DNA from: Gammaproteobacteria bacterium
Lineage (GTDB): Bacteria > Pseudomonadota > Gammaproteobacteria > Natronospirales > JAIVGZ01
Length of the DNA stretch: 64,000 nucleotides
Assembly (NCBI GenBank): GCA_040882865.1
Contig: JBBEAN010000008.1
Span: forward strand, 556,437 to 620,436
Direction: 5' to 3'
The position numbers were made by a program, and so were the translations under genes. The notes under the pieces are model-generated. The model was not told the DNA's origin. It ran no database searches and saw nothing but the letters and a program-made list of their open reading frames with translations. Positions within the stretch are counted from its first letter, which is position 1. Each line of letters starts with the position of its first letter. Shown here piece after piece: positions 5,064 to 62,187 of the stretch.

Positions 5064-5423
5064 ATGAACGAAGACATCACCCAAATCCGGCGCCGCGCGG
5101 TCATGAGCCGCGCGCTGCTTCGCACGACGAGCCGCCTCGGTCTGAGCCGCGAACGGCTCGCGTCCGCGACCGGCCTGCGTCTTGCCGAAATCGCCTCGCT
5201 GGAAAACGAAGCGGGCGAGCTCGACCCGGCCGACCCGCGCTGGAATGCGTTCGTCGAACTCGTCCGCTTATGCTGGATCCTGGACGTCGTGTCGGCGGGC
5301 GACGACGCCGCCATGCGCGACTGGATGCATTGCTACAATCGCGACCTCAACGCCGTTCCGGCCGACTTCATTGCAGGCGAACGCGGGCTCAGCGAGGCAA
5401 TCCGTTACCTCGAGGCCCACTAA
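5064..5423 (+). CDS. Xre-like HTH / DUF2384 (MbcA-ParS type) antitoxin-like protein, no toxin partner
   Basis: 119 aa. The C-terminal part (DDAAMRDWMHCYNRDLNAVPADFIAGERGLSEAIRYLE) resembles the DUF2384 toxin-binding domain of RES-toxin antitoxins. No RES-type ORF is adjacent. Confidence 0.55.
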   Translation: MNEDITQIRRRAVMSRALLRTTSRLGLSRERLASATGLRLAEIASLENEAGELDPADPRWNAFVELVRLCWILDVVSAGDDAAMRDWMHCYNRDLNAVPADFIAGERGLSEAIRYLEAH

Positions 5424-21881: not shown

Positions 21882-22349
21882 TTAGAGTGGAAGCGCCAGC
21901 ACGATGGCGTCTTCGCGCTGGCCGCGAGCCGCCGGGTAATAGTTGTTCCGCAAACCGACCTCGACGAACCCGGCGACGCGATACAGATGCAGTGCCGCGT
22001 CGTTCGATGGGCGTACCTCGAGGAACAGGGCCTTGGCGCGGTGGCTCCGCGCCAGCTCAAACACGTGGTCGAGCATCATCCGGCCCAGGCCCGTGCGCTG
22101 CCGCGCCGGTGCCACGCACAGGTTGAGCAGATGTGCCTCACCTGCGCCGACTGACATCACCACATAGCCGGCGACACCGTCGTCGGCCTCGGCGATCCAG
22201 CAGCAGTATCCGATGCGTAGGCAGTCGCGGAAGATTCCCGCGGTCCACGGGTAGGGATAAGCCGCGCGCTCGACTTCCATGACCGCGTCGATGTCGCTGG
22301 TGCGCATCGGCCGCAGTTGCACGGGTGCCGGCTCGCGTTGCGCACTCAT
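21882..22349 (-). CDS. rimI: ribosomal-protein-alanine N-acetyltransferase
   Basis: GNAT core (RQRTGLGRMML) and RimI-like N-terminus (MRTSDIDAVMEVERAAYPYPW). Start ATG 22349 forms an ATGA overlap with the upstream stop. The longer track ORF is an over-extension. Confidence 0.8.
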   Translation of the reverse strand: MSAQREPAPVQLRPMRTSDIDAVMEVERAAYPYPWTAGIFRDCLRIGYCCWIAEADDGVAGYVVMSVGAGEAHLLNLCVAPARQRTGLGRMMLDHVFELARSHRAKALFLEVRPSNDAALHLYRVAGFVEVGLRNNYYPAARGQREDAIVLALPL

Positions 22350-23098
22350 GCGACGGGCTCCGCGACGCTCAGCGCGAGCTTGAGGTCGTCCCACGCGCGG
22401 CGCTTCTGTCCCGGTGATCGCAGCAGGTACGCCGGGTGATACGTTGCGACAAGCGGTGTTTCTCGCGTGCCATACCGATGCACGGTGCCGCGCAGTTTGC
22501 CGATTGGCTGGTCGCTTGCGAGCAGCGTCTGCGCGGCGATGCGGCCCACGACGAGAATGAGTTCGGGTTCCACGAGCGCGATTTGGCGATCCAGGAATGC
22601 ACGGCACGCCGTGAGCTCATCAGACTTCGGGTCGCGGTTGTCGGGCGGCCGGCACTTGAGCGTGTTCGCGATGTACACGCGCTCACGCGGCGCGCCCGCG
22701 GCCGCGAGCATCGCATTGAGGAGTTGCCCGGCGCGACCGACGAACGGCTCGCCTTGGCGATCCTCCTCCGCGCCCGGCGCCTCACCCACAAGCATCCAAC
22801 GCGCGTTGCGATCGCCCGTGCCGAATACGGTTTGCGTGCGGCTTCGGTGGAGGTCGCAGGCGGTGCAGGTGGAGACGGTTTGCTGGAGGGTGTCCCAATC
22901 GAGGGTCGAGGCATCGGCGAGTTCGCGGCGCGAAGGCGCCGCTCCAACAGGGGCTGGTGGTGACTCGGGCACATCGCGGCGCAAAGGCGCCGCTCCTACA
23001 GGTGTCGACTCCGGTAATGGCGCCGCTCCTACAATCGGTGGCCTGACATAGAGCTGAACACCGAGGGCGTCGAGGTAGTGGCGGCGCCGCGCGTCCAC
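22346..23098 (-). CDS. uracil-DNA glycosylase, family 4, with REP-derived N-terminal linker
   Basis: Motif A GEAPGAEED, motif B HPAYLLR, Cys cluster (CTACDL...), N-terminal YLDALGVQLY motif. GTG start. Confidence 0.85.
   Translation of the reverse strand: MDARRRHYLDALGVQLYVRPPIVGAAPLPESTPVGAAPLRRDVPESPPAPVGAAPSRRELADASTLDWDTLQQTVSTCTACDLHRSRTQTVFGTGDRNARWMLVGEAPGAEEDRQGEPFVGRAGQLLNAMLAAAGAPRERVYIANTLKCRPPDNRDPKSDELTACRAFLDRQIALVEPELILVVGRIAAQTLLASDQPIGKLRGTVHRYGTRETPLVATYHPAYLLRSPGQKRRAWDDLKLALSVAEPVA
22922..23036 (+). repeat. REP elements x2.5 (orientation A), in frame inside the UDG gene
   Basis: 22922-22953 TTCGCGGCGCGAAGGCGCCGCTCCAACAGGGG. 22973-23004 ATCGCGGCGCAAAGGCGCCGCTCCTACAGGTG. 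Half copy at 23019-23036 GGCGCCGCTCCTACAATC. The 51-nt period equals 17 codons. Confidence 0.9.
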
Positions 23099-31701: not shown

Positions 31702-31731
31702 AATCGCGACGCCGAGAGCGTCGCTCCTACA
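31702..31731 (+). repeat. REP element, orientation A, stem variant GCGACGC/GCGTCGC
   Basis: AATCGCGACGCCGAGAGCGTCGCTCCTACA. Abuts the LysM stop codon (TTA 31732-34 on the + strand). Confidence 0.9.
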
Positions 31732-43295: not shown

Positions 43296-44786
43296 ATGCA
43301 CGGCGGGTTGAAGCTTGAGCCGCACAAAGCCGAGTCAACGCGCGAGCCGATTCTGCGCGGCCCGCGTCCGAGCGAGCTCGTACTGCCGCTCGCACAGCAC
43401 ATGGGCGCCGCGGCGAAGGCGCGTGTCGCGGTCGGTGACCACGTCGCGCGCGGCCAGCCGCTTGCCGACGCCGACGGTTACCTGAGCGCGCCAGTGCATG
43501 CCCCTGCCTCAGGCACCGTTGTAGCCATCGAGCCGCGCCGCATCGCGCATCCGTCAGGCCTCGCGACGCCCTGCATCGTGCTCGAGACCGACGCCGCCGA
43601 CCATGACTGGGACGGCCTGCACGCGCACCCACAATGGCGCGACCTCACCCCCGAGCAGGTGCGAACGCTCGTGCGCGATGCCGGCATCGTCGGCCTCGGC
43701 GGCGCCGCGTTTCCGACCCACGTGAAACTCAATCCCGCGCTGACCGTCGACACGCTCGTCCTCAACGGCGCGGAGTGCGAGCCGTACATCAGCTGCGACG
43801 ACCGGCTGATGCGCGAGCGCGCGGCGCAGGTCGTCGCGGGTGCGGAGATCCTGCTGCACGCGCTGCAGGCAAAGCGGTGCGTGATCGCGATTGAGGAAGA
43901 CAAGCCAGAAGCGATCGCGGCCATCAAAACAGGAATCGCGGCGCAAAGGCGCCGCTCCAACACCAGCGACTTCGACCTGGCTTTGGAGGTGGTGCCTGCG
44001 ATTTACCCTCAGGGCGGCGAGCGGCAGTTGATTGCCACGGTGACGGGACGGCGGGTCCCGAGCGGCGGCTTACCGCTGAACGTCGGCGTCGTCTGCCACA
44101 ACGTCGCGACCGCGGCCGCGGTCGCCGCAGCGGTGCTGGACGGCGAGCCGCTCACGCGGCGCGTTGTCACCATGACCGGCGACGCGATGGCAGCACCGCG
44201 CAATGTCGACGCGCTGTACGGCACGCCCGTCTCAGCGCTCATCGCCGCGTGCGGTGGCTACGACGCGCCGGTGGACCGACTTGTAATGGGCGGTCCGATG
44301 ATGGGCTTCGCGCTGCCCGGCGACGACGTACCCGTCGTGAAGGCGATGAATTGCATCTTGGCGGAGTCCGATGCGATCGCGGCGCAAAGGCGCCGCTCCG
44401 TCAAACAGGTTCAGCCCTGCATTCGGTGTACGGCGTGTGAAGACGCGTGCCCGGCCGAGCTCCTGCCGCAGCAGCTGCACTGGTTCGCGCGCGCGCGGGA
44501 TTTCGACCAGGCCCGCGATCACGCGCTGTTCGATTGCATCGAATGCGGCGTCTGCGACGCCGTGTGTCCGAGCGACATACCGCTCGCCGCGCAGTTTCGC
44601 TGGGCGAAGGCAGAGATCCGCGCGCGCGATGACGAACGCAGTCGCGCCGAGCTCGCGAAACACCGCTTCGAGGCGCGCGCGCAGCGCCTCGCTGACGAGA
44701 AGCGCGAGCGCGAAGAACGCTTGAAGAAGAAACAGGACCCCGCCGCCATCGAAGCAGCGCTCGCACGCGTGAAGGCGAGCCGATGA
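43296..44786 (+). CDS. rnfC: electron transport complex subunit RnfC/RsxC
   Basis: GLGGAAFPTHVKL, NGAECEPYISCDDRLM, and two 4Fe-4S motifs (CIRCTACEDACP, CIECGVCDAVCP). ATG 43296 is preferred. The GTG at 43239 would read through the REP. Confidence 0.9.
   Translation: MHGGLKLEPHKAESTREPILRGPRPSELVLPLAQHMGAAAKARVAVGDHVARGQPLADADGYLSAPVHAPASGTVVAIEPRRIAHPSGLATPCIVLETDAADHDWDGLHAHPQWRDLTPEQVRTLVRDAGIVGLGGAAFPTHVKLNPALTVDTLVLNGAECEPYISCDDRLMRERAAQVVAGAEILLHALQAKRCVIAIEEDKPEAIAAIKTGIAAQRRRSNTSDFDLALEVVPAIYPQGGERQLIATVTGRRVPSGGLPLNVGVVCHNVATAAAVAAAVLDGEPLTRRVVTMTGDAMAAPRNVDALYGTPVSALIAACGGYDAPVDRLVMGGPMMGFALPGDDVPVVKAMNCILAESDAIAAQRRRSVKQVQPCIRCTACEDACPAELLPQQLHWFARARDFDQARDHALFDCIECGVCDAVCPSDIPLAAQFRWAKAEIRARDDERSRAELAKHRFEARAQRLADEKREREERLKKKQDPAAIEAALARVKASR
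43933..43964 (+). repeat. REP element, orientation A, in frame inside rnfC
   Basis: GAATCGCGGCGCAAAGGCGCCGCTCCAACACC, translated as (G)IAAQRRRSNT. Confidence 0.9.
44375..44410 (+). repeat. REP element, orientation A, in frame inside rnfC
   Basis: GATCGCGGCGCAAAGGCGCCGCTCCGTCAAACAGGT, translated as AIAAQRRRSVKQV. Confidence 0.9.
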
Positions 44787-48025: not shown

Positions 48026-48361
48026 ATGACGAAGTCCCGTAACTACACGCTGGCGCTCGCCGTCGGCACCGCCCTGGCCGCCGCGCCCGCAGCGGCCGCC
48101 GCCAACCCGTTCGGCCTCTCCGACCTCGGCGCCGGTTACATGCTCGGCGCGGCAGCAGCGGGCGACCCGGCGCCGGCAGCGAAAGACGCCGAAGGCAAAT
48201 GCGGCGAGGACAAGGCCAAGAAGGACGCCGAGGGCAAGTGCGGTGAAGGCAAGTGCGGTGAGGACAAGGACAAGGCCGAGGCGAAGGATGGCGAGGGCAA
48301 GTGCGGTGAGGAGAAAGACAAGGCCAAGACGAAAGATGGCGAGGGTAAGTGCGGGGCCTGA
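48026..48361 (+). CDS. secreted Cys-repeat RiPP precursor (five EGKCG motifs; HvfA/oxazolin-like metallophore precursor)
   Basis: Signal peptide MTKSRNYTLALAVGTALAAAPAAAAA. After it comes NPFGLSDLGAGYML, then a K/E/D-rich tail with EGKCG x5 (Cys codons at 48200, 48239, 48254, 48302, 48350), ending EGKCGA-stop. Directly followed by DUF692 and DUF2063 genes. Confidence 0.8.
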   Translation: MTKSRNYTLALAVGTALAAAPAAAAANPFGLSDLGAGYMLGAAAAGDPAPAAKDAEGKCGEDKAKKDAEGKCGEGKCGEDKDKAEAKDGEGKCGEEKDKAKTKDGEGKCGA

Positions 48362-51547: not shown

Positions 51548-51932
51548 CCCACGACTCGCGGCGGACACGCTGTCCGTTGCGCAACTCCCGCTTTGCAGTG
51601 TGCGGCTGATGAATGACGCGCGTTACCCGTGGATCATCCTGGTTCCGCGCGTCGAGGATGCCGTCGAGCTGCTCGACCTCTCGGATGCCGACCAACAGCG
51701 CCTATACGACGAAATCAGGCAGTGCGCGCGCGTGCTACAGGAACACACAAGCGCCGACAAACTGAACATCGCTGCCCTCGGTAACGTCGTGCGCCAGCTG
51801 CACGTCCACGTCGTCGCGCGCTTTCACGACGACGACGCGTGGCCGAAGCCGGTCTGGGGCGTGCACCCGGCGGTCCCCTATGAGGACGACGCCGCGGCAA
51901 CGCTGATTCAGGCGCTGGCGACGCGCCTATGA
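51537..51932 (+). CDS. HIT family hydrolase
   Basis: Histidine triad QLHVHVVARF. 131 aa. Overlaps the anti-sigma gene by 11 nt. Confidence 0.8.
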   Translation: MALDPRLAADTLSVAQLPLCSVRLMNDARYPWIILVPRVEDAVELLDLSDADQQRLYDEIRQCARVLQEHTSADKLNIAALGNVVRQLHVHVVARFHDDDAWPKPVWGVHPAVPYEDDAAATLIQALATRL

Positions 51933-52013
51933 ATCGCGGCGCGAAGGCGCCGGCCTATTCGCGGCGCAAAGGCGCCGTTTATTCGCGGCGCAAAGGCGCC
52001 GCTCCTACAGTTG
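51931..52013 (+). repeat. three tandem REP units (orientation A), 24-26-nt period
   Basis: GAATCGCGGCGCGAAGGCGCCGGCCT / ATTCGCGGCGCAAAGGCGCCGTTT / ATTCGCGGCGCAAAGGCGCCGCTCCTACAGTTG. Only the last unit keeps the CTCCTACAG tail. The array begins inside the HIT stop codon (TGA 51930-32). Confidence 0.9.
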
Positions 52014-54620: not shown

Positions 54621-56375
54621 TCACAAATCCGTCAGCGTCCCCGCGAACGCTTCCGCCGAGAAGGCCACCGTCTCCGACAGCGTCGGGTGGGGGTGGATCA
54701 CAAGGCCGATGTCGTGCGCATCCGCGCCCATCTCGATCGCGAGCACCGCTTCTGAAATGAGATCGCCCGCGTTCGGGCCGACGATGCCCGCGCCGATCAC
54801 GCGTCCGGTCTTTTCATCGAACAGCAACTTGCTGAACCCGTCCTGCGCGTCGAGCGCGAGCGCACGACCGCTCGCCGCCCACGGGAAGCGGCCCTTGCCG
54901 ACCTTGATGCCTTTCTGTTTGGCTTCGGTCTCGGTCATGCCGCACCACGCGACCTCCGGGTCGGTATATGCGACCGACGGAATCACGCGCGCGTCGAACG
55001 CCGATTTTTGGCCGGCGGTGACTTCCGCCGCGACTTTCGCTTCGTGCGTCGCCTTGTGCGCGAGCATCGGATTGCCGGCGACGTCGCCGATCGCGAAGAT
55101 GTTCGGCTGGTTCGTGCGCATCTGTTCGTCCACGGGGATGAAGCCGCGGTCGTCGACCGTGACGCCAGCCGCGTCCGCGCCAAGGCCGCGCCCGTTCGGC
55201 TTGCGTCCGATGGCAACGAGTACACGGTCGAAGGTCTGAGATTCCGGCGCGTCCTTGCCGTCGAACGACACCGCGATGCCGCCTTTTTTCGCCTCGAGTT
55301 TCGCGACTTTCGTCGAGAGCCAGATGGCTTCGCACTTCGACTCGAGGCGCTTCTGGAGCACCTTCACGAGGTCGCGGTCGGTTCCCGGCATCAGTCCATC
55401 GGAAAGCTCCACGACACTGACTTTCGTACCCAGCGCCGCGTACACCGTCGCCATTTCGAGCCCGATGATGCCGCCGCCGACCACGAGCAGGCTCGCCGGC
55501 ACATCCTCGAGCGCGAGCGCGCCGGTGGAGTCGATGATGCGCGGGTCTTCGGGCGCACCCGGGAGCTTCACGACGGACGAACCGGCCGCGATGATCGCGT
55601 GCTCGAAATGGATGAGTTCGTTCTTGTCGCCCTCGACCGCGAGGTGATTCGCGTCCTTGAAGCGGCCGACGCCGGTCACGACCGATACCTTGCGTTTTTT
55701 CGCGAGCGCCTTGAGCCCGCCCGTGAGCTGACCGACCACGCCGTCCTTGAACCCGCGCAGCTTTTCGAGGTCGAGCTTCGGCTCACCGAATGAAACGCCG
55801 TGCGTGCCGAGCGTCTCGACTTCCGCCATCACGCGCGCGACGTGCAGCAATGCTTTCGACGGGATGCAGCCCACGTTCAGGCATACGCCGCCGAGCGTCG
55901 GGTAGCGCTCGACCAATATGACTTTCTTGCCGAGGTCGGCTGCGCGGAACGCCGCGGTATAGCCGCCGGGGCCGGCGCCGAGGACCAGCACATCGCACGC
56001 CAACGTGGTGTCCTTACGGGTGGGAGCGGCGCTCTGCGCCGCGATTGGCTCGGATTTCTCCGGCGCCGGTTTTTCCTCGCGGCGCGAAGGCGCCGCTCCT
56101 GCATCCAGGTCACCTGTAGGAGCGGCACCTTCGTGCCGCGATCCGTCAGAAGCTTCGAGCTCGGCAATCTCGCTGCCCTGCGACACCTTGTCGCCGGCCT
56201 TGACCAGGAGCTTCGTGACTTTACCGGCGTGGGTCGATGGCACGTCCATCGCAGCCTTGTCGGTCTCGATGGTGATCAGGCCCTGCTCGGCCTCGACCGA
56301 TTCGCCTTCGGCGACCAGCACCTCGATGACCTCGACGTCCGAGAAATTCCCGATGTCGGGAACGAGAATTTTCAT
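54621..56375 (-). CDS. lpdA: dihydrolipoyl dehydrogenase (E3) with N-terminal lipoyl domain
   Basis: Lipoyl domain (ITIETDKAAMDVPS), FAD site LVLGAGPGGY, redox disulfide CLNVGCIPSK, and HPHPTLSE. 584 aa. Confidence 0.9.
   Translation of the reverse strand: MKILVPDIGNFSDVEVIEVLVAEGESVEAEQGLITIETDKAAMDVPSTHAGKVTKLLVKAGDKVSQGSEIAELEASDGSRHEGAAPTGDLDAGAAPSRREEKPAPEKSEPIAAQSAAPTRKDTTLACDVLVLGAGPGGYTAAFRAADLGKKVILVERYPTLGGVCLNVGCIPSKALLHVARVMAEVETLGTHGVSFGEPKLDLEKLRGFKDGVVGQLTGGLKALAKKRKVSVVTGVGRFKDANHLAVEGDKNELIHFEHAIIAAGSSVVKLPGAPEDPRIIDSTGALALEDVPASLLVVGGGIIGLEMATVYAALGTKVSVVELSDGLMPGTDRDLVKVLQKRLESKCEAIWLSTKVAKLEAKKGGIAVSFDGKDAPESQTFDRVLVAIGRKPNGRGLGADAAGVTVDDRGFIPVDEQMRTNQPNIFAIGDVAGNPMLAHKATHEAKVAAEVTAGQKSAFDARVIPSVAYTDPEVAWCGMTETEAKQKGIKVGKGRFPWAASGRALALDAQDGFSKLLFDEKTGRVIGAGIVGPNAGDLISEAVLAIEMGADAHDIGLVIHPHPTLSETVAFSAEAFAGTLTDL
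56016..56046 (-). repeat. REP element, orientation B, 3-nt loop, in frame inside lpdA
   Basis: ACGGGTGGGAGCGGCGCTCTGCGCCGCGATT. Sense-strand translation IAAQSAAPTR. Confidence 0.9.
56075..56144. repeat. REP doublet (tail-to-tail, no spacer) in frame inside lpdA
   Basis: 56075-56110 CCTCGCGGCGCGAAGGCGCCGCTCCTGCATCCAGGT (orientation A). 56111-56144 CACCTGTAGGAGCGGCACCTTCGTGCCGCGATCC (orientation B, stem variant GCGGCAC/GTGCCGC). Sense-strand translation GSRHEGAAPTGDLDAGAAPSRRE. Confidence 0.9.
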
Positions 56376-56378
56376 AGC

Positions 56379-56447
56379 GAATCGCGGCGCAAAGGCGCCG
56401 CTCGTACAACTCTGGCACCTGTAGGAGCGGCGCCTTTGCGCCGCGAC
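56379..56447. repeat. REP doublet (REPIN-like), tail-to-tail, 5-nt spacer, aceF-lpdA intergenic
   Basis: GAATCGCGGCGCAAAGGCGCCGCTCGTACAAC-tctgg-CACCTGTAGGAGCGGCGCCTTTGCGCCGCGAC. Confidence 0.9.
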
Positions 56448-56454
56448 AAGCCGC

Positions 56455-57735
56455 TCATAGCACCAACCCTTCGACGTCGTGCAAGACTTTCGCCAAGTGC
56501 GTCGTGAACCGCGCAGCGGCCGCGCCGTCGATCACGCGATGGTCGTACGACAGCGACAGCGGCAGCATGAGCCGCGGCTTGAAGTCGTCGCCGTCCCACA
56601 CGGGCTTCATCTGCGACTTCGACACGCCGAGGATCGCGACTTCGGGCGCGTTCACGATCGGCGTGAACGCGGTGCCGCCGATACCGCCGAGGCTCGACAC
56701 CGAGAAGGTACCGCCCTGCATGTCCTTCGCTTTGAGTTTCTTGTCGCGCGCCTTGCCGCTGATCTCGCCGAGTTCCTTCGCGATGTCGAAGACGTTCTTC
56801 TTGTCCGCGTCGCGGATGACCGGTACGACGAGACCCTCGGGGGTGTCGACCGCGAAGCCGATGTGGAAGTACTGCTTCACGATGAGCTGGTCACCGTCGA
56901 GCGACGAATTGAAGCGCGGGAATTCCTTCAGCGTCAGCGCACACGCCTTGATGATGAACGCGAGCGGCGTGAGCTTCGCGCCGAGCTTCTCCGCGTCGGC
57001 CTTCAGCGACTGGCGCACCGTTTCCATATCGGTGATGTCCGCTTCGTCGTGCTGCGTGACGTGCGGAATCGTCGCCCACGCGCGCTGCAGGTGCGGCCCG
57101 GCGATTTTCTGGATGCGCGTGAGCAGCTCGGCCTCGACCGGCCCCCACTGCGAGAAATCGATGCGCGGCGCGGGCTCGAACGACGGGCCGCCCATACCGC
57201 CGCCCTGCATCACGCCCTTCACGAACGCTTTCACGTCGTCGTGGGTGATACGGCCTTTTTTTGCGCTGCCGTTGACGCGCGTGAGGTCGACGCCGAGTTC
57301 GCGCGCAAGTTTGCGGACCGATGGTGACGCGTGGGGTGGCGTGCCGTCAGCGCGGCGGCTGGGCGCCGGTTCCTGTTCGCGGTGCGAAGGCGCCGCTCCT
57401 ACAGGTGGCTCCGAAGGCGCGCCTTTTTCTTCGCGGCGCGAAGGTGCAGGTTCCTTTTCGCGGCGCGAAGGCGCCGCTCCTACATCTTGCTTCTCGGTGG
57501 CTTCGATCTCCGCGATCGGCGTGCCTTCGGAGACCTTGTCGCCGGCCTTCACGAGCAGCTTCGTGATCTTGCCCGCGTGCGTCGACGGCACGTCCATCGC
57601 GGCCTTGTCGGTTTCGATGGTGATGAGGCCGTCCTCGACCGCGACGGTGTCGCCCTCGGCGACCATGACTTCGATGACTTCGACGCCCTCGAAGTTACCG
57701 ATATCGGGGACCTTGATCTGGACCGTGTCAGACAT
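56455..57735 (-). CDS. aceF: dihydrolipoamide acetyltransferase (E2), single lipoyl domain
   Basis: Lipoyl domain (ITIETDKAAMDVPS), E3-binding domain (SPSVRKLARELGVDLTRVNGSAKKGRI), and catalytic SLSYDHRVIDGA. Confidence 0.9.
   Translation of the reverse strand: MSDTVQIKVPDIGNFEGVEVIEVMVAEGDTVAVEDGLITIETDKAAMDVPSTHAGKITKLLVKAGDKVSEGTPIAEIEATEKQDVGAAPSRREKEPAPSRREEKGAPSEPPVGAAPSHREQEPAPSRRADGTPPHASPSVRKLARELGVDLTRVNGSAKKGRITHDDVKAFVKGVMQGGGMGGPSFEPAPRIDFSQWGPVEAELLTRIQKIAGPHLQRAWATIPHVTQHDEADITDMETVRQSLKADAEKLGAKLTPLAFIIKACALTLKEFPRFNSSLDGDQLIVKQYFHIGFAVDTPEGLVVPVIRDADKKNVFDIAKELGEISGKARDKKLKAKDMQGGTFSVSSLGGIGGTAFTPIVNAPEVAILGVSKSQMKPVWDGDDFKPRLMLPLSLSYDHRVIDGAAAARFTTHLAKVLHDVEGLVL
57345..57486 (+). 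repeat. four to five REP-derived units (orientation A), in frame inside aceF
   Basis: 57375-57408 GTTCGCGGTGCGAAGGCGCCGCTCCTACAGGTGG. 57429-57450 CTTCGCGGCGCGAAGGTGCAGG. 57456-57486 TTTCGCGGCGCGAAGGCGCCGCTCCTACATC. A degenerate unit lies at 57345-57373. Confidence 0.85.
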
Positions 57736-60412
57736 CGGCGTGCGTGGCCTTCAACGGCGACGCCTTGTCGGCATCGATCCGATATTTCGTCATGGCCTCG
57801 GTCACGGTCTTCATCGAGATCGTGCCGTCGTCCGCGAGCGCGCGCAGCGCCGCGATCGTGATCCAGCGGCGGTCGACCTCGAAGAAGTGCCTCAGCTGTT
57901 CGCGCGAATCGCTACGACCGAAGCCGTCGGTGCCGAGCACCGTGTAGCGACCACGCACCCACGGTCGGACCTGGTCGGCGACCGCGCGCATATAGTCGGT
58001 CGCAGCAACCACCGGCCCGTCGGTGTCATCGAGGCACTCGGCGACGTACGCGCGCTGTGGGGTCTTCGCGCCGGGGTTCAACAGATTCCAACGGTCGGCT
58101 GCGATGCCGTCGCGGCGCAGTTCATTGAAACTCGTCGCACTCCAGACGTCGGCTTCGACGCCCCAGTCGTCGCGCAGCCATTCGGCCGCGGCGATGACTT
58201 CGCGCAGGATGGTGCCGCTGCCGAGCAACTGCACGCGGGCCTTCGCTTTCTTCTTGCCCTCGCTGAATCGATACAGGCCCTTGAGGATGCCGGGCGCCGC
58301 GCCGTCGGGCATCGCCGGATGCGTGTAATTCTCGTTCATCATCGTGATGTAATAGAAAACGTTCTCGTAATCGGTGTACATGCGGCGCAAGCCGTCATGG
58401 ATGATCACCGCAAGTTCGTACGCGAACGTCGGGTCGTAGCTGATGCAGTTCGGAACCGTTGACGACAACAAGTGACTGTGGCCGTCCTGATGCTGCAGGC
58501 CCTCGCCGTTCAGCGTCGTGCGGCCGGCGGTCCCGCCGAGCAGGAAGCCACGCGCGCCCGCGTCGCCAGCGGCCCACGCGAGGTCGCCGATGCGCTGGAA
58601 GCCGAACATCGAATAGAACAGGAAGAACGGAATCGTCGGCACGCCGTGGTTCGCGTACGCGGTCGCCGCGGCGATCCACGAACTCATCGAGCCGGCTTCT
58701 GTGATGCCCTCCTGCAGTATCTGCCCGTCCTTGCTCTCCTTGTAGAACATCAGCTGGTCGGCGTCCTGCGGCGTGTAAAGCTGGCCTTGCGACGAATAGA
58801 TGCCGAGTTGGCGGAACATGCCTTCCATGCCGAAAGTCCGTGCCTCGTCCGGCACGATCGGCACGATGTACTTGCCGACCTTCTTGTCCTTCAGCAGCGC
58901 GTTCAGGATGCGCACGACCGCCATCGTCGACGAGATCTCGCGATCACCGCTCGATTCGAGTTGCGACTTGAACAGCTCGAGCGACGGCATCTCGAGCGAA
59001 GGCTTCTCGGTGCTGCGCGCGGGCAGATAGCCGCCGAGCTTCTCGCGCTGTTCCTGCAGGTATTTGAGCTCCGGGCTGTCGTCGGCCGGCTTGCAGAACG
59101 GGATGCTCGCGATCTGGTCGTCGCTGACGGGGATGTTGAAGCGGTCGCGGAATGCCTTCAGCGCGTCCTCGTCCATTTTCTTGGATTGATGCGCCGTGTT
59201 CTGGCCTTCACCTGCGGCACCCATGCCGAAGCCCTTCACCGTCTTCGCGAGGATGACGGTCGGCTGGCCGGTATGCTCCATCGCGGCCTTGTATGCAGTA
59301 TTCACTTTGCGCGCGTCGTGCCCGCCGCGGTTCAGGCGCCAGATTTCCTCGTCGCTCATGTTCGCGACCATTTCTTTCAGCTCGGGATATTTGCCGAAGA
59401 AATTCTCGCGCGTGTACGCACCGCCCTTCGCCTTGTAGTTCTGGTACTCGCCGTCGACGGATTCTTCCATCACACGGCGCAATTGGCCGAGTCGGTCACG
59501 CTCGAGCAGCGGGTCCCAACGCGAGCCCCACAGCACCTTGATGACGTTCCAGCCGGAACCGCGGAAGCTCGCTTCGAGTTCCTGGATGATCTTGCCGTTG
59601 CCGCGCACCGGGCCGTCGAGCCGCTGCAGGTTGCAGTTCACGACGAAGACAAGGTTATCGAGGCCTTCGCGACCGGCGAGGCTCGTCGCGCCGAGTGATT
59701 CCGGCTCGTCCATTTCACCATCGCCGAGGAACGCCCACACTTTGCGCTTCGAGGTGTCGGAAAGTCCGCGGTGCTCGAGGTAGCGCATGAATCGCGCTTG
59801 GTAGATCGCCATGATCGGCCCAAGCCCCATCGATACCGTCGGGAATTGCCAGAAGTTCGGCATGATCCACGGGTGCGGATACGACGTGATGCCCTTGCCG
59901 TCGACGTCTTCGCGGTAATGCGCGAGCTGCTCGCGCGTGAGACGCCCTTCGAGGAACGCGCGCGCGTAGATACCGGGCGAACTGTGGCCCTGGATGTAGA
60001 CGAGGTCGCCGCCGTGTTCATCGGACGGCGCGTGCCAGTAATGGTTGAAGCCGACTTCGTACAGGATCGCTGACGACGCGTAGGTGGAGATATGCCCCCC
60101 GAGGTCCGTGCCCTTACGGTTCGCGTGCACGACCATCGCCATCGCGTTCCAGCGGATGTACGCCTCGATACGCTTCTCGAGTTCGCGGTTCCCGGGGTAC
60201 TGCGCGTCGAGGTGCGGCGGAATCGTGTTCACGTAAGCGGTGTTCTGCGAGAACGGCAGGTGGGTGCCCTCGCGGCGCGCGCGGTCAATCAATTGCTCGA
60301 GCAGGAAGTGGGCGCGCTCGGGGCCTTCGACCGCGAGGACGGCTTCCATCGCATCCAGCCACTCACGGGTTTCGGTCGGGTCGGTGTCGCGCGCTGTGCG
60401 TTCGTCTGCCAT
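57728..60412 (-). CDS. aceE: pyruvate dehydrogenase E1 component (homodimeric type)
   Basis: 894 aa. N-terminus [18 protein letters not shown], ThDP motif region [10 protein letters not shown]. 8-nt overlap with aceF. Confidence 0.95.
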
Positions 60413-62158: not shown

Positions 62159-62187
62159 CAGGTGGGAGCGGCGCTCTGCGCCGCGAT
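62159..62187 (-). repeat. REP element, orientation B, 3-nt loop
   Basis: CAGGTGGGAGCGGCGCTCTGCGCCGCGAT. Lies 12 nt upstream of the pyrC ATG. Confidence 0.9.

Follow-up and report, generated by a model that had tools for sequence, protein, structure and literature searches.

Most of the AceF interdomain linker of an uncultured gammaproteobacterium probably derives from in-frame copies of a REP element

In this study, we analyzed a 64,000-nucleotide stretch of contig JBBEAN010000008.1 from an uncultured gammaproteobacterium (hereafter the window), in which the aceF gene encodes the E2 component (dihydrolipoyllysine-residue acetyltransferase) of the pyruvate dehydrogenase (PDH) complex. The linker between the lipoyl and E3-binding domains of this AceF very probably consists of in-frame copies of a lineage-specific, GTAG-headed repetitive extragenic palindromic (REP) element, termed REP-A here, which would have been inserted, expanded, and able to survive in permissive sites. 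An earlier note on this DNA, made from the sequence alone, had proposed that tandem REP units encode almost the entire linker, and the count agrees well with that proposal, as a five-unit array codes for 45 of the 56 linker residues (~80%). The AceF case is an unusually extensive and clear example of an already described phenomenon, with turnover at the level of single units, and it points to no new mechanism or function.

The aceF open reading frame (ORF; 56455..57735, minus strand) encodes 426 residues with a single lipoyl domain. Pfam places Biotin_lipoyl (PF00364) at residues 6-77, E3_binding (PF02817) at 134-169, and 2-oxoacid_dh (PF00198) at 201-425, which is the domain order of E2 proteins (lipoyl, linker, E3/E1-binding, linker, and catalytic acyltransferase). 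The linker bounded by the first two domains comprises residues 78-133 (57337..57504, minus strand; 56 aa). Residues 84-130 read DVGAAPSRRE KEPAPSRREE KGAPSEPP VGAAPSHRE QEPAPSRRAD on the sense strand, exactly the peptide and the position that the earlier note had given. When the sense strand is cut into 27-mers from 57483 downwards, the array resolves into five consecutive 27-nt units in exact register at 57349-57483 (minus strand). The repeat first placed at 57345-57486 is real, with adjusted boundaries. Tandem Repeats Finder detected it at 57362-57476, with a period of 27 and 4.3 copies. The linker sequence also predicts tryptic peptides such as EEKGAPSEPPVGAAPSHR and EQEPAPSR.

From unit 1 to unit 5, the identities to GTAGGAGCGGCGCCTTCGCGCCGCGAA are 27, 20, 14, 26, and 16 of 27, against a 99th percentile of 13/27 among the other 27-mers of the operon. 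Unit 1 (57457..57483) is GTAGGAGCGGCGCCTTCGCGCCGCGAA itself, a full REP-A encoding VGAAPSRRE. Unit 4 (57376..57402; VGAAPSHRE) is a full REP-A with one stem mismatch and, unlike unit 1, follows a CACCT head extension of the kind usually seen in intergenic copies. Unit 2 (57430..57456; KEPAPSRRE) is degenerate at its 5' end. Unit 3 (57403..57429; EKGAPSEPP) is a fragment in register, with a background P(>=14) of 0.008, and unit 5 (57349..57375; QEPAPSRRA) is degenerate and also in register. All five lie on the minus strand. The array thus contains two full copies, one clear 5'-degenerate copy, and two weak ones, in line with the alternation of full and truncated units described previously. The AGC serine codon of unit 5, which is TCG in unit 2, was considered as a sign of selection on the peptide and was rejected, because a single sequence cannot resolve this.

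E2 linkers are generally rich in Ala, Pro, and charged residues, and Ala/Pro/Arg/Glu codons in a 65% GC genome might mimic a REP by convergent composition; composition could account in part for the weak units 3 and 5. As an explanation of the array, convergence is extremely improbable. Units 1 and 4 match at 27/27 and 26/27, including a GTAG head of the non-coding type, far above the operon background, and nucleotide identity refutes convergence for units 1, 2, and 4. REP-type peptides occur only in this clade among 161 AceF linkers, and in no other linker of this set is the motif made of REP-like DNA. The single GAAPS in L100 uses unrelated, non-palindromic codons. No orthologue was found to encode the same peptide with unrelated codons, the linkers of REP-free relatives are unrelated, and the family is mostly intergenic. 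These observations favor a palindromic repeat over convergence, as the earlier note had argued.

The REP family itself is well represented in the window. The 24-mer GGAGCGGCGCCTTCGCGCCGCGAA has 15 matches at <=3 mismatches, compared with 0 in 100 dinucleotide-preserving shuffles. At least three subfamilies share the head GT[A/G/T]GGAGC and the tail GCGAT or GCGAA and differ in their stems: REP-A (GTAGGAGCGGCGCCTTTGCGCCGCGAT; 27 nt, equal to nine codons), REP-B (GTGGGAGCGACGCTCTTGGCGTCGCGAT; 28 nt; window positions 31703, 33105, 38251, 38309, 54441, and 54590), and REP-C (GTGGGAGCGGCGCTCTGCGCCGCGAT; 26 nt; window positions 62162 and 37536). REP-A is the sole subfamily of the three with a length divisible by three, and direct reading of its sequence finds it stop-free in five of the six frames. 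A strict pattern detects 22 full units of REP-A, REP-B, or REP-C in the 64-kb window, 12 of them clearly intergenic and 7 deep inside genes, and 21 of the 22 carry the heads GTAGGAGC, GTGGGAGC, or GTTGGAGC, as GTAG-type elements do. An intergenic REP-A copy folds into a 7-bp all-GC stem with a 4-nt loop (-14.9 kcal/mol, z = -2.4), within the format of REPs (20-40 bp, GC-rich stem of 5-13 bp, and small loop). The copies are dispersed and predominantly intergenic within the window, as is usual for REPs. A scan of the window against Rfam gave no match.

Inverted pairs are present at 56381/56421, 38251/38309, and 56076/56116, and at 5151/5209 in L001, the locus of a close relative described below. 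The first of these is a non-coding REP-A pair in the aceF-lpd spacer (56381..56447; 56381-56407 on the minus and 56421-56447 on the plus strand). The spacer is absent from L002 and L003, the loci of two further relatives, in which the two genes overlap. An intergenic array at 51917-52007 comprises three REP-A-derived tandem units with a period of 24 rather than 27; the 27-nt register is therefore particular to the coding array.

Short repeats do break assemblies, and the linker could in principle be an artefact in which the assembler collapsed or mis-joined repeats, or belong to a disrupted gene. The Logan contig L164 indeed stops precisely where the first intergenic REP follows aceF (window ~56447), so that its end coincides with the intergenic pair; the intragenic units were assembled through. 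An artefact or pseudogene is nevertheless hardly credible. The aceF DNA is the same over all 1281 nt in the independent Logan assembly SRR27977661, and its product has 100% identity to an NCBI protein from a metagenome-assembled genome (MAG) labelled 'Gammaproteobacteria bacterium'. No frameshift or stop was found in aceF, which keeps an intact reading frame with all three domains, and the GC content at third codon positions is 0.85 for the whole gene and 0.80 for the linker. A related yet distinct arrangement of units is present in L001, which comes from an unrelated soil metagenome.

An AlphaFold2 model built with 50 homologues is confident for the lipoyl domain, with a block-mean predicted local distance difference test (pLDDT) score of 88-96, and also for the E3-binding and catalytic domains. 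For residues ~81-130, the block-mean pLDDT falls to 40-51 and the model shows no secondary structure, and this segment of the linker is predicted to be disordered.

The single-lipoyl AceF relatives at 89, 79, 73, and 66% identity are nearly collinear with the window protein, highly conserved outside the linker, and wholly different inside it. The outcome is the one anticipated for an orthologue comparison: the linkers differ, through gain, loss, and exchange of whole units among close relatives, and the flanking domains stay conserved. In L001 (P0002, 89%), the REP-A units differ in number and arrangement from those of the window and are accompanied by a reverse REP-C. The linker of L002 (P0003, 79%), SGERNKEKLALEAGI..., is unrelated to that of the window and common to the 73% relative; near its end, at 371-440 of the locus, lies an in-frame inverted REP-B/REP-A pair (HRDAKSVAP...VGAAPLRRD). 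No REP unit is present in aceF of L003 (P0004, 73%) or of P0098 (66%), and the Lpd linker of L003 (2960-3065) is an in-frame REP-B array (DRDAKSVAPTSVAP...). On this sequence comparison, in-frame REPs in lipoyl linkers recur across the clade with different subfamilies. Among 167 fetched loci (1.92 Mb), those outside this clade lack REP-A, REP-B, and REP-C. AceF scans of genome and metagenome contigs returned only matches at <=69% identity, all REP-free, which served as negative controls and were of no use for tracing the history of the linker.

The earlier note had left it between recruitment of a palindrome as a linker and replacement of an existing one. At 56 aa, the window linker has the median last-linker length of the 161 AceF proteins. 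Since the length is unchanged, the REP units appear to have replaced the ancestral linker and not lengthened the arm.

The gene is flanked by aceE (57728..60412) and lpd (54621..56375, minus strand), and the latter encodes an E3 of 584 aa with its own N-terminal lipoyl domain (Pfam Biotin_lipoyl at residues 3-73, Pyr_redox_2 from 128). The Lpd linker after the lipoyl domain (56020-56142) is largely made of three full in-frame REP units. One REP-A (56116..56142, plus strand; SRHEGAAP) is oriented opposite to the gene, and both of its stem arms are changed (GCGGCAC/GTGCCGC) with the pairing kept. A second REP-A (56076..56102, minus strand; (A)GAAPSRRE) follows the orientation of the gene. The third unit is a REP-C (56020..56045, plus strand; IAAQSAAP) with the same sequence as the intergenic copy at 62162-62187. 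When the aceF and lpd linker DNA of the window and L001 is aligned, one forward REP-A is present in all four sequences; AceF unit 1 is thus common to L001 aceF and both lpd linkers. A reverse REP-C is present in three of the four, and the extra units vary by gene and genome.

This shared scaffold of a forward REP-A and a reverse REP-C is what would be expected if one ancestral REP dimer had entered one lipoyl linker and had then been propagated without repeated transposition. The remaining units would come from conversion between aceF and lpd, 27-nt slippage, and conversion from intergenic copies. The exact 27-nt register of the array is consistent with such a single event. So is the close similarity of the two lipoyl modules, whose DNA is 80-96% identical within genomes (96% in L003). 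Long identical aceF-lpd tracts in many taxa (e.g., L023, 9995-10242 vs 11312; L072; L076; L003) indicate frequent gene conversion between the lipoyl modules of many beta- and gammaproteobacteria. We consider a single event with concerted evolution a serious but unlikely explanation. Unit 4 has the CACCT head of intergenic copies and unit 1 does not. The REP-B/REP-A pair of L002 aceF occupies another linker position, and L003 has a REP-B array in lpd and none in aceF despite 96% identity of the lipoyl DNA. RnfC and a uracil-DNA glycosylase (UDG) hold separate insertions (see below). The head of unit 4 and the dissimilar L003 linkers therefore argue for more than one acquisition.

A 15-mer test for local repeats in aceF was also run on all loci and was set aside, as it mainly reported the paralogy of the aceF and lpd lipoyl modules; distant matches were due to chance except in L077. 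In this unrelated MAG, a different short palindrome, GGTGTCTGACACC, occurs in both orientations in the aceF and lpd linkers (513-644 and 1857-1901). It may be an independent case of in-frame linker repeats, on a contig too short to show dispersal. In L002 (1540-1677), the lpd ORF stops after 75 codons near the contig end, beside the palindrome CTGACTTCGGGGTCAG; the stop is probably an assembly-end artefact at the repeat.

In-frame REP-A units are also found in rnfC (43299..44786, plus strand). The units at 43935..43961 (minus strand; IAAQRRRSN) and 44376..44402 (minus strand; IAAQRRRSV) correspond to gaps of eight and five residues, respectively, in the alignment with the solved structure of Azotobacter vinelandii RnfC (8ahx_C), which has neither insert. 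The second unit lies just upstream of the CIRC Fe-S motif. The clade relatives L165-L167 carry other palindromic or REP-like remnants at both sites, which suggests that the sites were occupied long ago and have since turned over, or that the current subfamily of the genome has overwritten them. A family-4 UDG (22346..23098, minus strand) has three further in-frame REP-A units in its spacer, at 22922-22948, 22973-22999, and, as a partial copy, ~23010-23032 (all minus strand). In UDG homologues, conservation covers the N-terminal RRxxYLxALGI motif and the glycosylase domain and not the variable spacer between them. As the homologues align from residue 1, translation is predicted to run through the units. 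Across AceF, Lpd, RnfC, and UDG, REP-A units are read in three different frames, and all four genes are intact, stop-free ORFs with full domain sets. The units are located in linkers or loops, as judged from the Pfam bounds, the AlphaFold2 disorder, the RnfC structure gaps, and the variable UDG spacer.

We propose the following origin for the AceF linker. REP units would insert widely, and the mobilization step, which we infer, presumably relies on a RAYT-type transposase that acts in trans or on recombination among existing copies. Selection would purge copies that break a fold or a reading frame, so that intragenic survivors would be found only in linkers, loops, and spacers that tolerate nearly any hydrophilic Ala/Pro/charged sequence. 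Inside such a linker, slippage or unequal recombination could add units 27 nt (nine codons) at a time, and the lipoyl modules of aceF and lpd probably exchanged them by gene conversion. The ancestral linker SGERxKExLALxAGI, kept in the 73-79% relatives, would have been deleted with the arm length held constant, and most AceF units would later have lost their hairpin. The REP-encoded peptide would now act as the swinging-arm linker, in a near-neutral replacement with no new function.

Several observations weigh against this proposal. A crude regular-expression screen for the RAYT/HUH motif [MLIV]P[ND]H.H found no instance in the six frames of the window. Independent insertions are not cleanly separable from a scenario in which gene conversion and slippage acted on one ancient insertion. 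No clean empty site was found in close clade relatives at either RnfC position, and neither a precise junction nor a target duplication can be defined from them for the RnfC insertions. The matches of units 3 and 5 are weak (14 and 16 of 27) and draw their main support from the register. Copies in coding frames also prefer CCTTCG (Ser) to the CCTTTG (Leu) usual in intergenic copies, which could be due to selection on the peptide or to common ancestry of duplicated units. We rejected this bias as evidence of selection, because the coding units are non-independent (duplication and gene conversion), and no statistic is claimed for it.

The linker could alternatively have been recruited adaptively, with the REP hairpins retained to slow ribosomes for domain-wise folding or to regulate aceF in another way. 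Unit 1 forms a perfect 7-bp GC hairpin (-15.2 kcal/mol) that resembles the intergenic copy, the Lpd unit changed on both stem arms has kept its pairing, and the stems are still intact in most full genic units. Adaptive recruitment remains improbable. Only unit 1 of AceF keeps an intact hairpin; unit 4 is weakened (-9.8 kcal/mol), and the remaining three (units 2, 3, and 5) show no folding beyond that of shuffled sequences, so that the hairpin is lost or weakened in four of the five units. The minimum free energy of the 171-nt linker mRNA is -69.8 kcal/mol, compared with -64.2 +/- 4.2 kcal/mol in shuffles (z = -1.3), and 20 of 200 shuffles reach an equal or lower energy. The number, orientation, and position of units vary freely among relatives, and REP-A units also occupy loops of unrelated proteins, with three different frames in use. 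The stable mRNA structures that the earlier note had placed exactly at the domain boundary are not supported by these results, and translational pausing at the AceF linker is pure speculation.

The novelty implied in the earlier note was overstated. Di Nocera, De Gregorio & Rocco (2013, BMC Genomics 14:522; PMC3733652) catalogued intragenic GTAG- and CGTC-tagged REPs in many species. According to this work, GTAG REPs are mostly intergenic, a minority are in frame within known genes as singles, dimers, or clusters, and intragenic clusters can code for 43-82 aa (PMC3733652). Their supplementary table includes the O. terrae OGDH-E2 (E2 of 2-oxoglutarate dehydrogenase; Oter_4191) and dihydrolipoamide acetyltransferase (Oter_4192), as well as PDH E1 and E2 of S. 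alaskensis (Sala_0526 and Sala_1235) (PMC3733652). The authors proposed that intragenic REPs are neutral 'in flexible linkers or loops' and described degenerate GTRG and GTKG head variants (PMC3733652), with which the variant heads in the window agree. Their GTAG-1 inserts encode VGA..., as the AceF units do (PMC3733652).

The present case differs in extent and host. REP units fill ~80% of the AceF linker in a strict nine-codon register, whereas 7-16 aa were added in the cases of Di Nocera et al. Both lipoyl-bearing subunits (E2 and E3) are affected here, and units of three subfamilies turn over among relatives. The host belongs to an uncultured lineage outside their survey, which stressed repair genes and not lipoyl linkers. 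In the literature library that we searched, no paper was found that singles out lipoyl linkers as REP targets.

The elements resemble Pseudomonas-type REP/REPIN sequences (GTAG-1) in the head (C)TGTAGGAGC, the short GC stem, the small loop, the GCGAA/GCGAT tail, and the frequent inverted pairs. They also resemble the P. putida REP consensus, with which the VGA-type peptides are consistent. Unlike the Pseudomonas-type elements, the stem sequences differ and the regular-expression screen found no RAYT in the window. With 7 of the 22 full units located deep within genes, the genic share in the window looks high for a mostly intergenic family.

The Rickettsia palindromic elements (RPEs; Ogata et al. 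2000, 2002; Claverie & Ogata 2003), as they are presented in the catalogue of Di Nocera et al., are in-frame palindromes within functional genes, at positions tolerated by the protein fold, interpreted as selfish DNA filtered by selection, and RPE-4 and RPE-6 are assigned there to the CGTC type (PMC3733652). RPEs reside in reduced intracellular genomes and are unrelated in sequence; REP-A behaves alike but is a 27-nt, GTAG-headed element and not a member of the RPEs. RPE-1 is much longer than the 27-nt unit.

As a natural experiment, the AceF linker illustrates that an essential swinging-arm linker can be almost wholly replaced by a selfish repeat at the same length, in agreement with the view that E2 linkers need to maintain their length and composition but not their sequence. 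Close relatives allow linker turnover to be viewed unit by unit. A broader and rather doubtful possibility is that the interdomain linkers of this clade (the E2/E3 arms, the UDG spacer, and the RnfC loops) are continually rebuilt from the currently active REP subfamily. REP-A, which spans nine codons, is stop-free in five frames, and has Ser more often than Leu in its in-frame copies, would then have been shaped by, or be unusually pre-adapted to, residence within genes. If this were true, REPs would be a regular source of disordered linker sequence and not an occasional accident. REPs of this kind also break short-read assemblies, as at the end of the Logan contig, and annotators may mask or split genes at 'extragenic' repeats.

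The window contains one further repeat, which is unrelated to the REPs. It is a 48-nt tandem repeat at 48248-48354 (2.2 copies, 89% match), located within a small ORF (48026..48361, plus strand).

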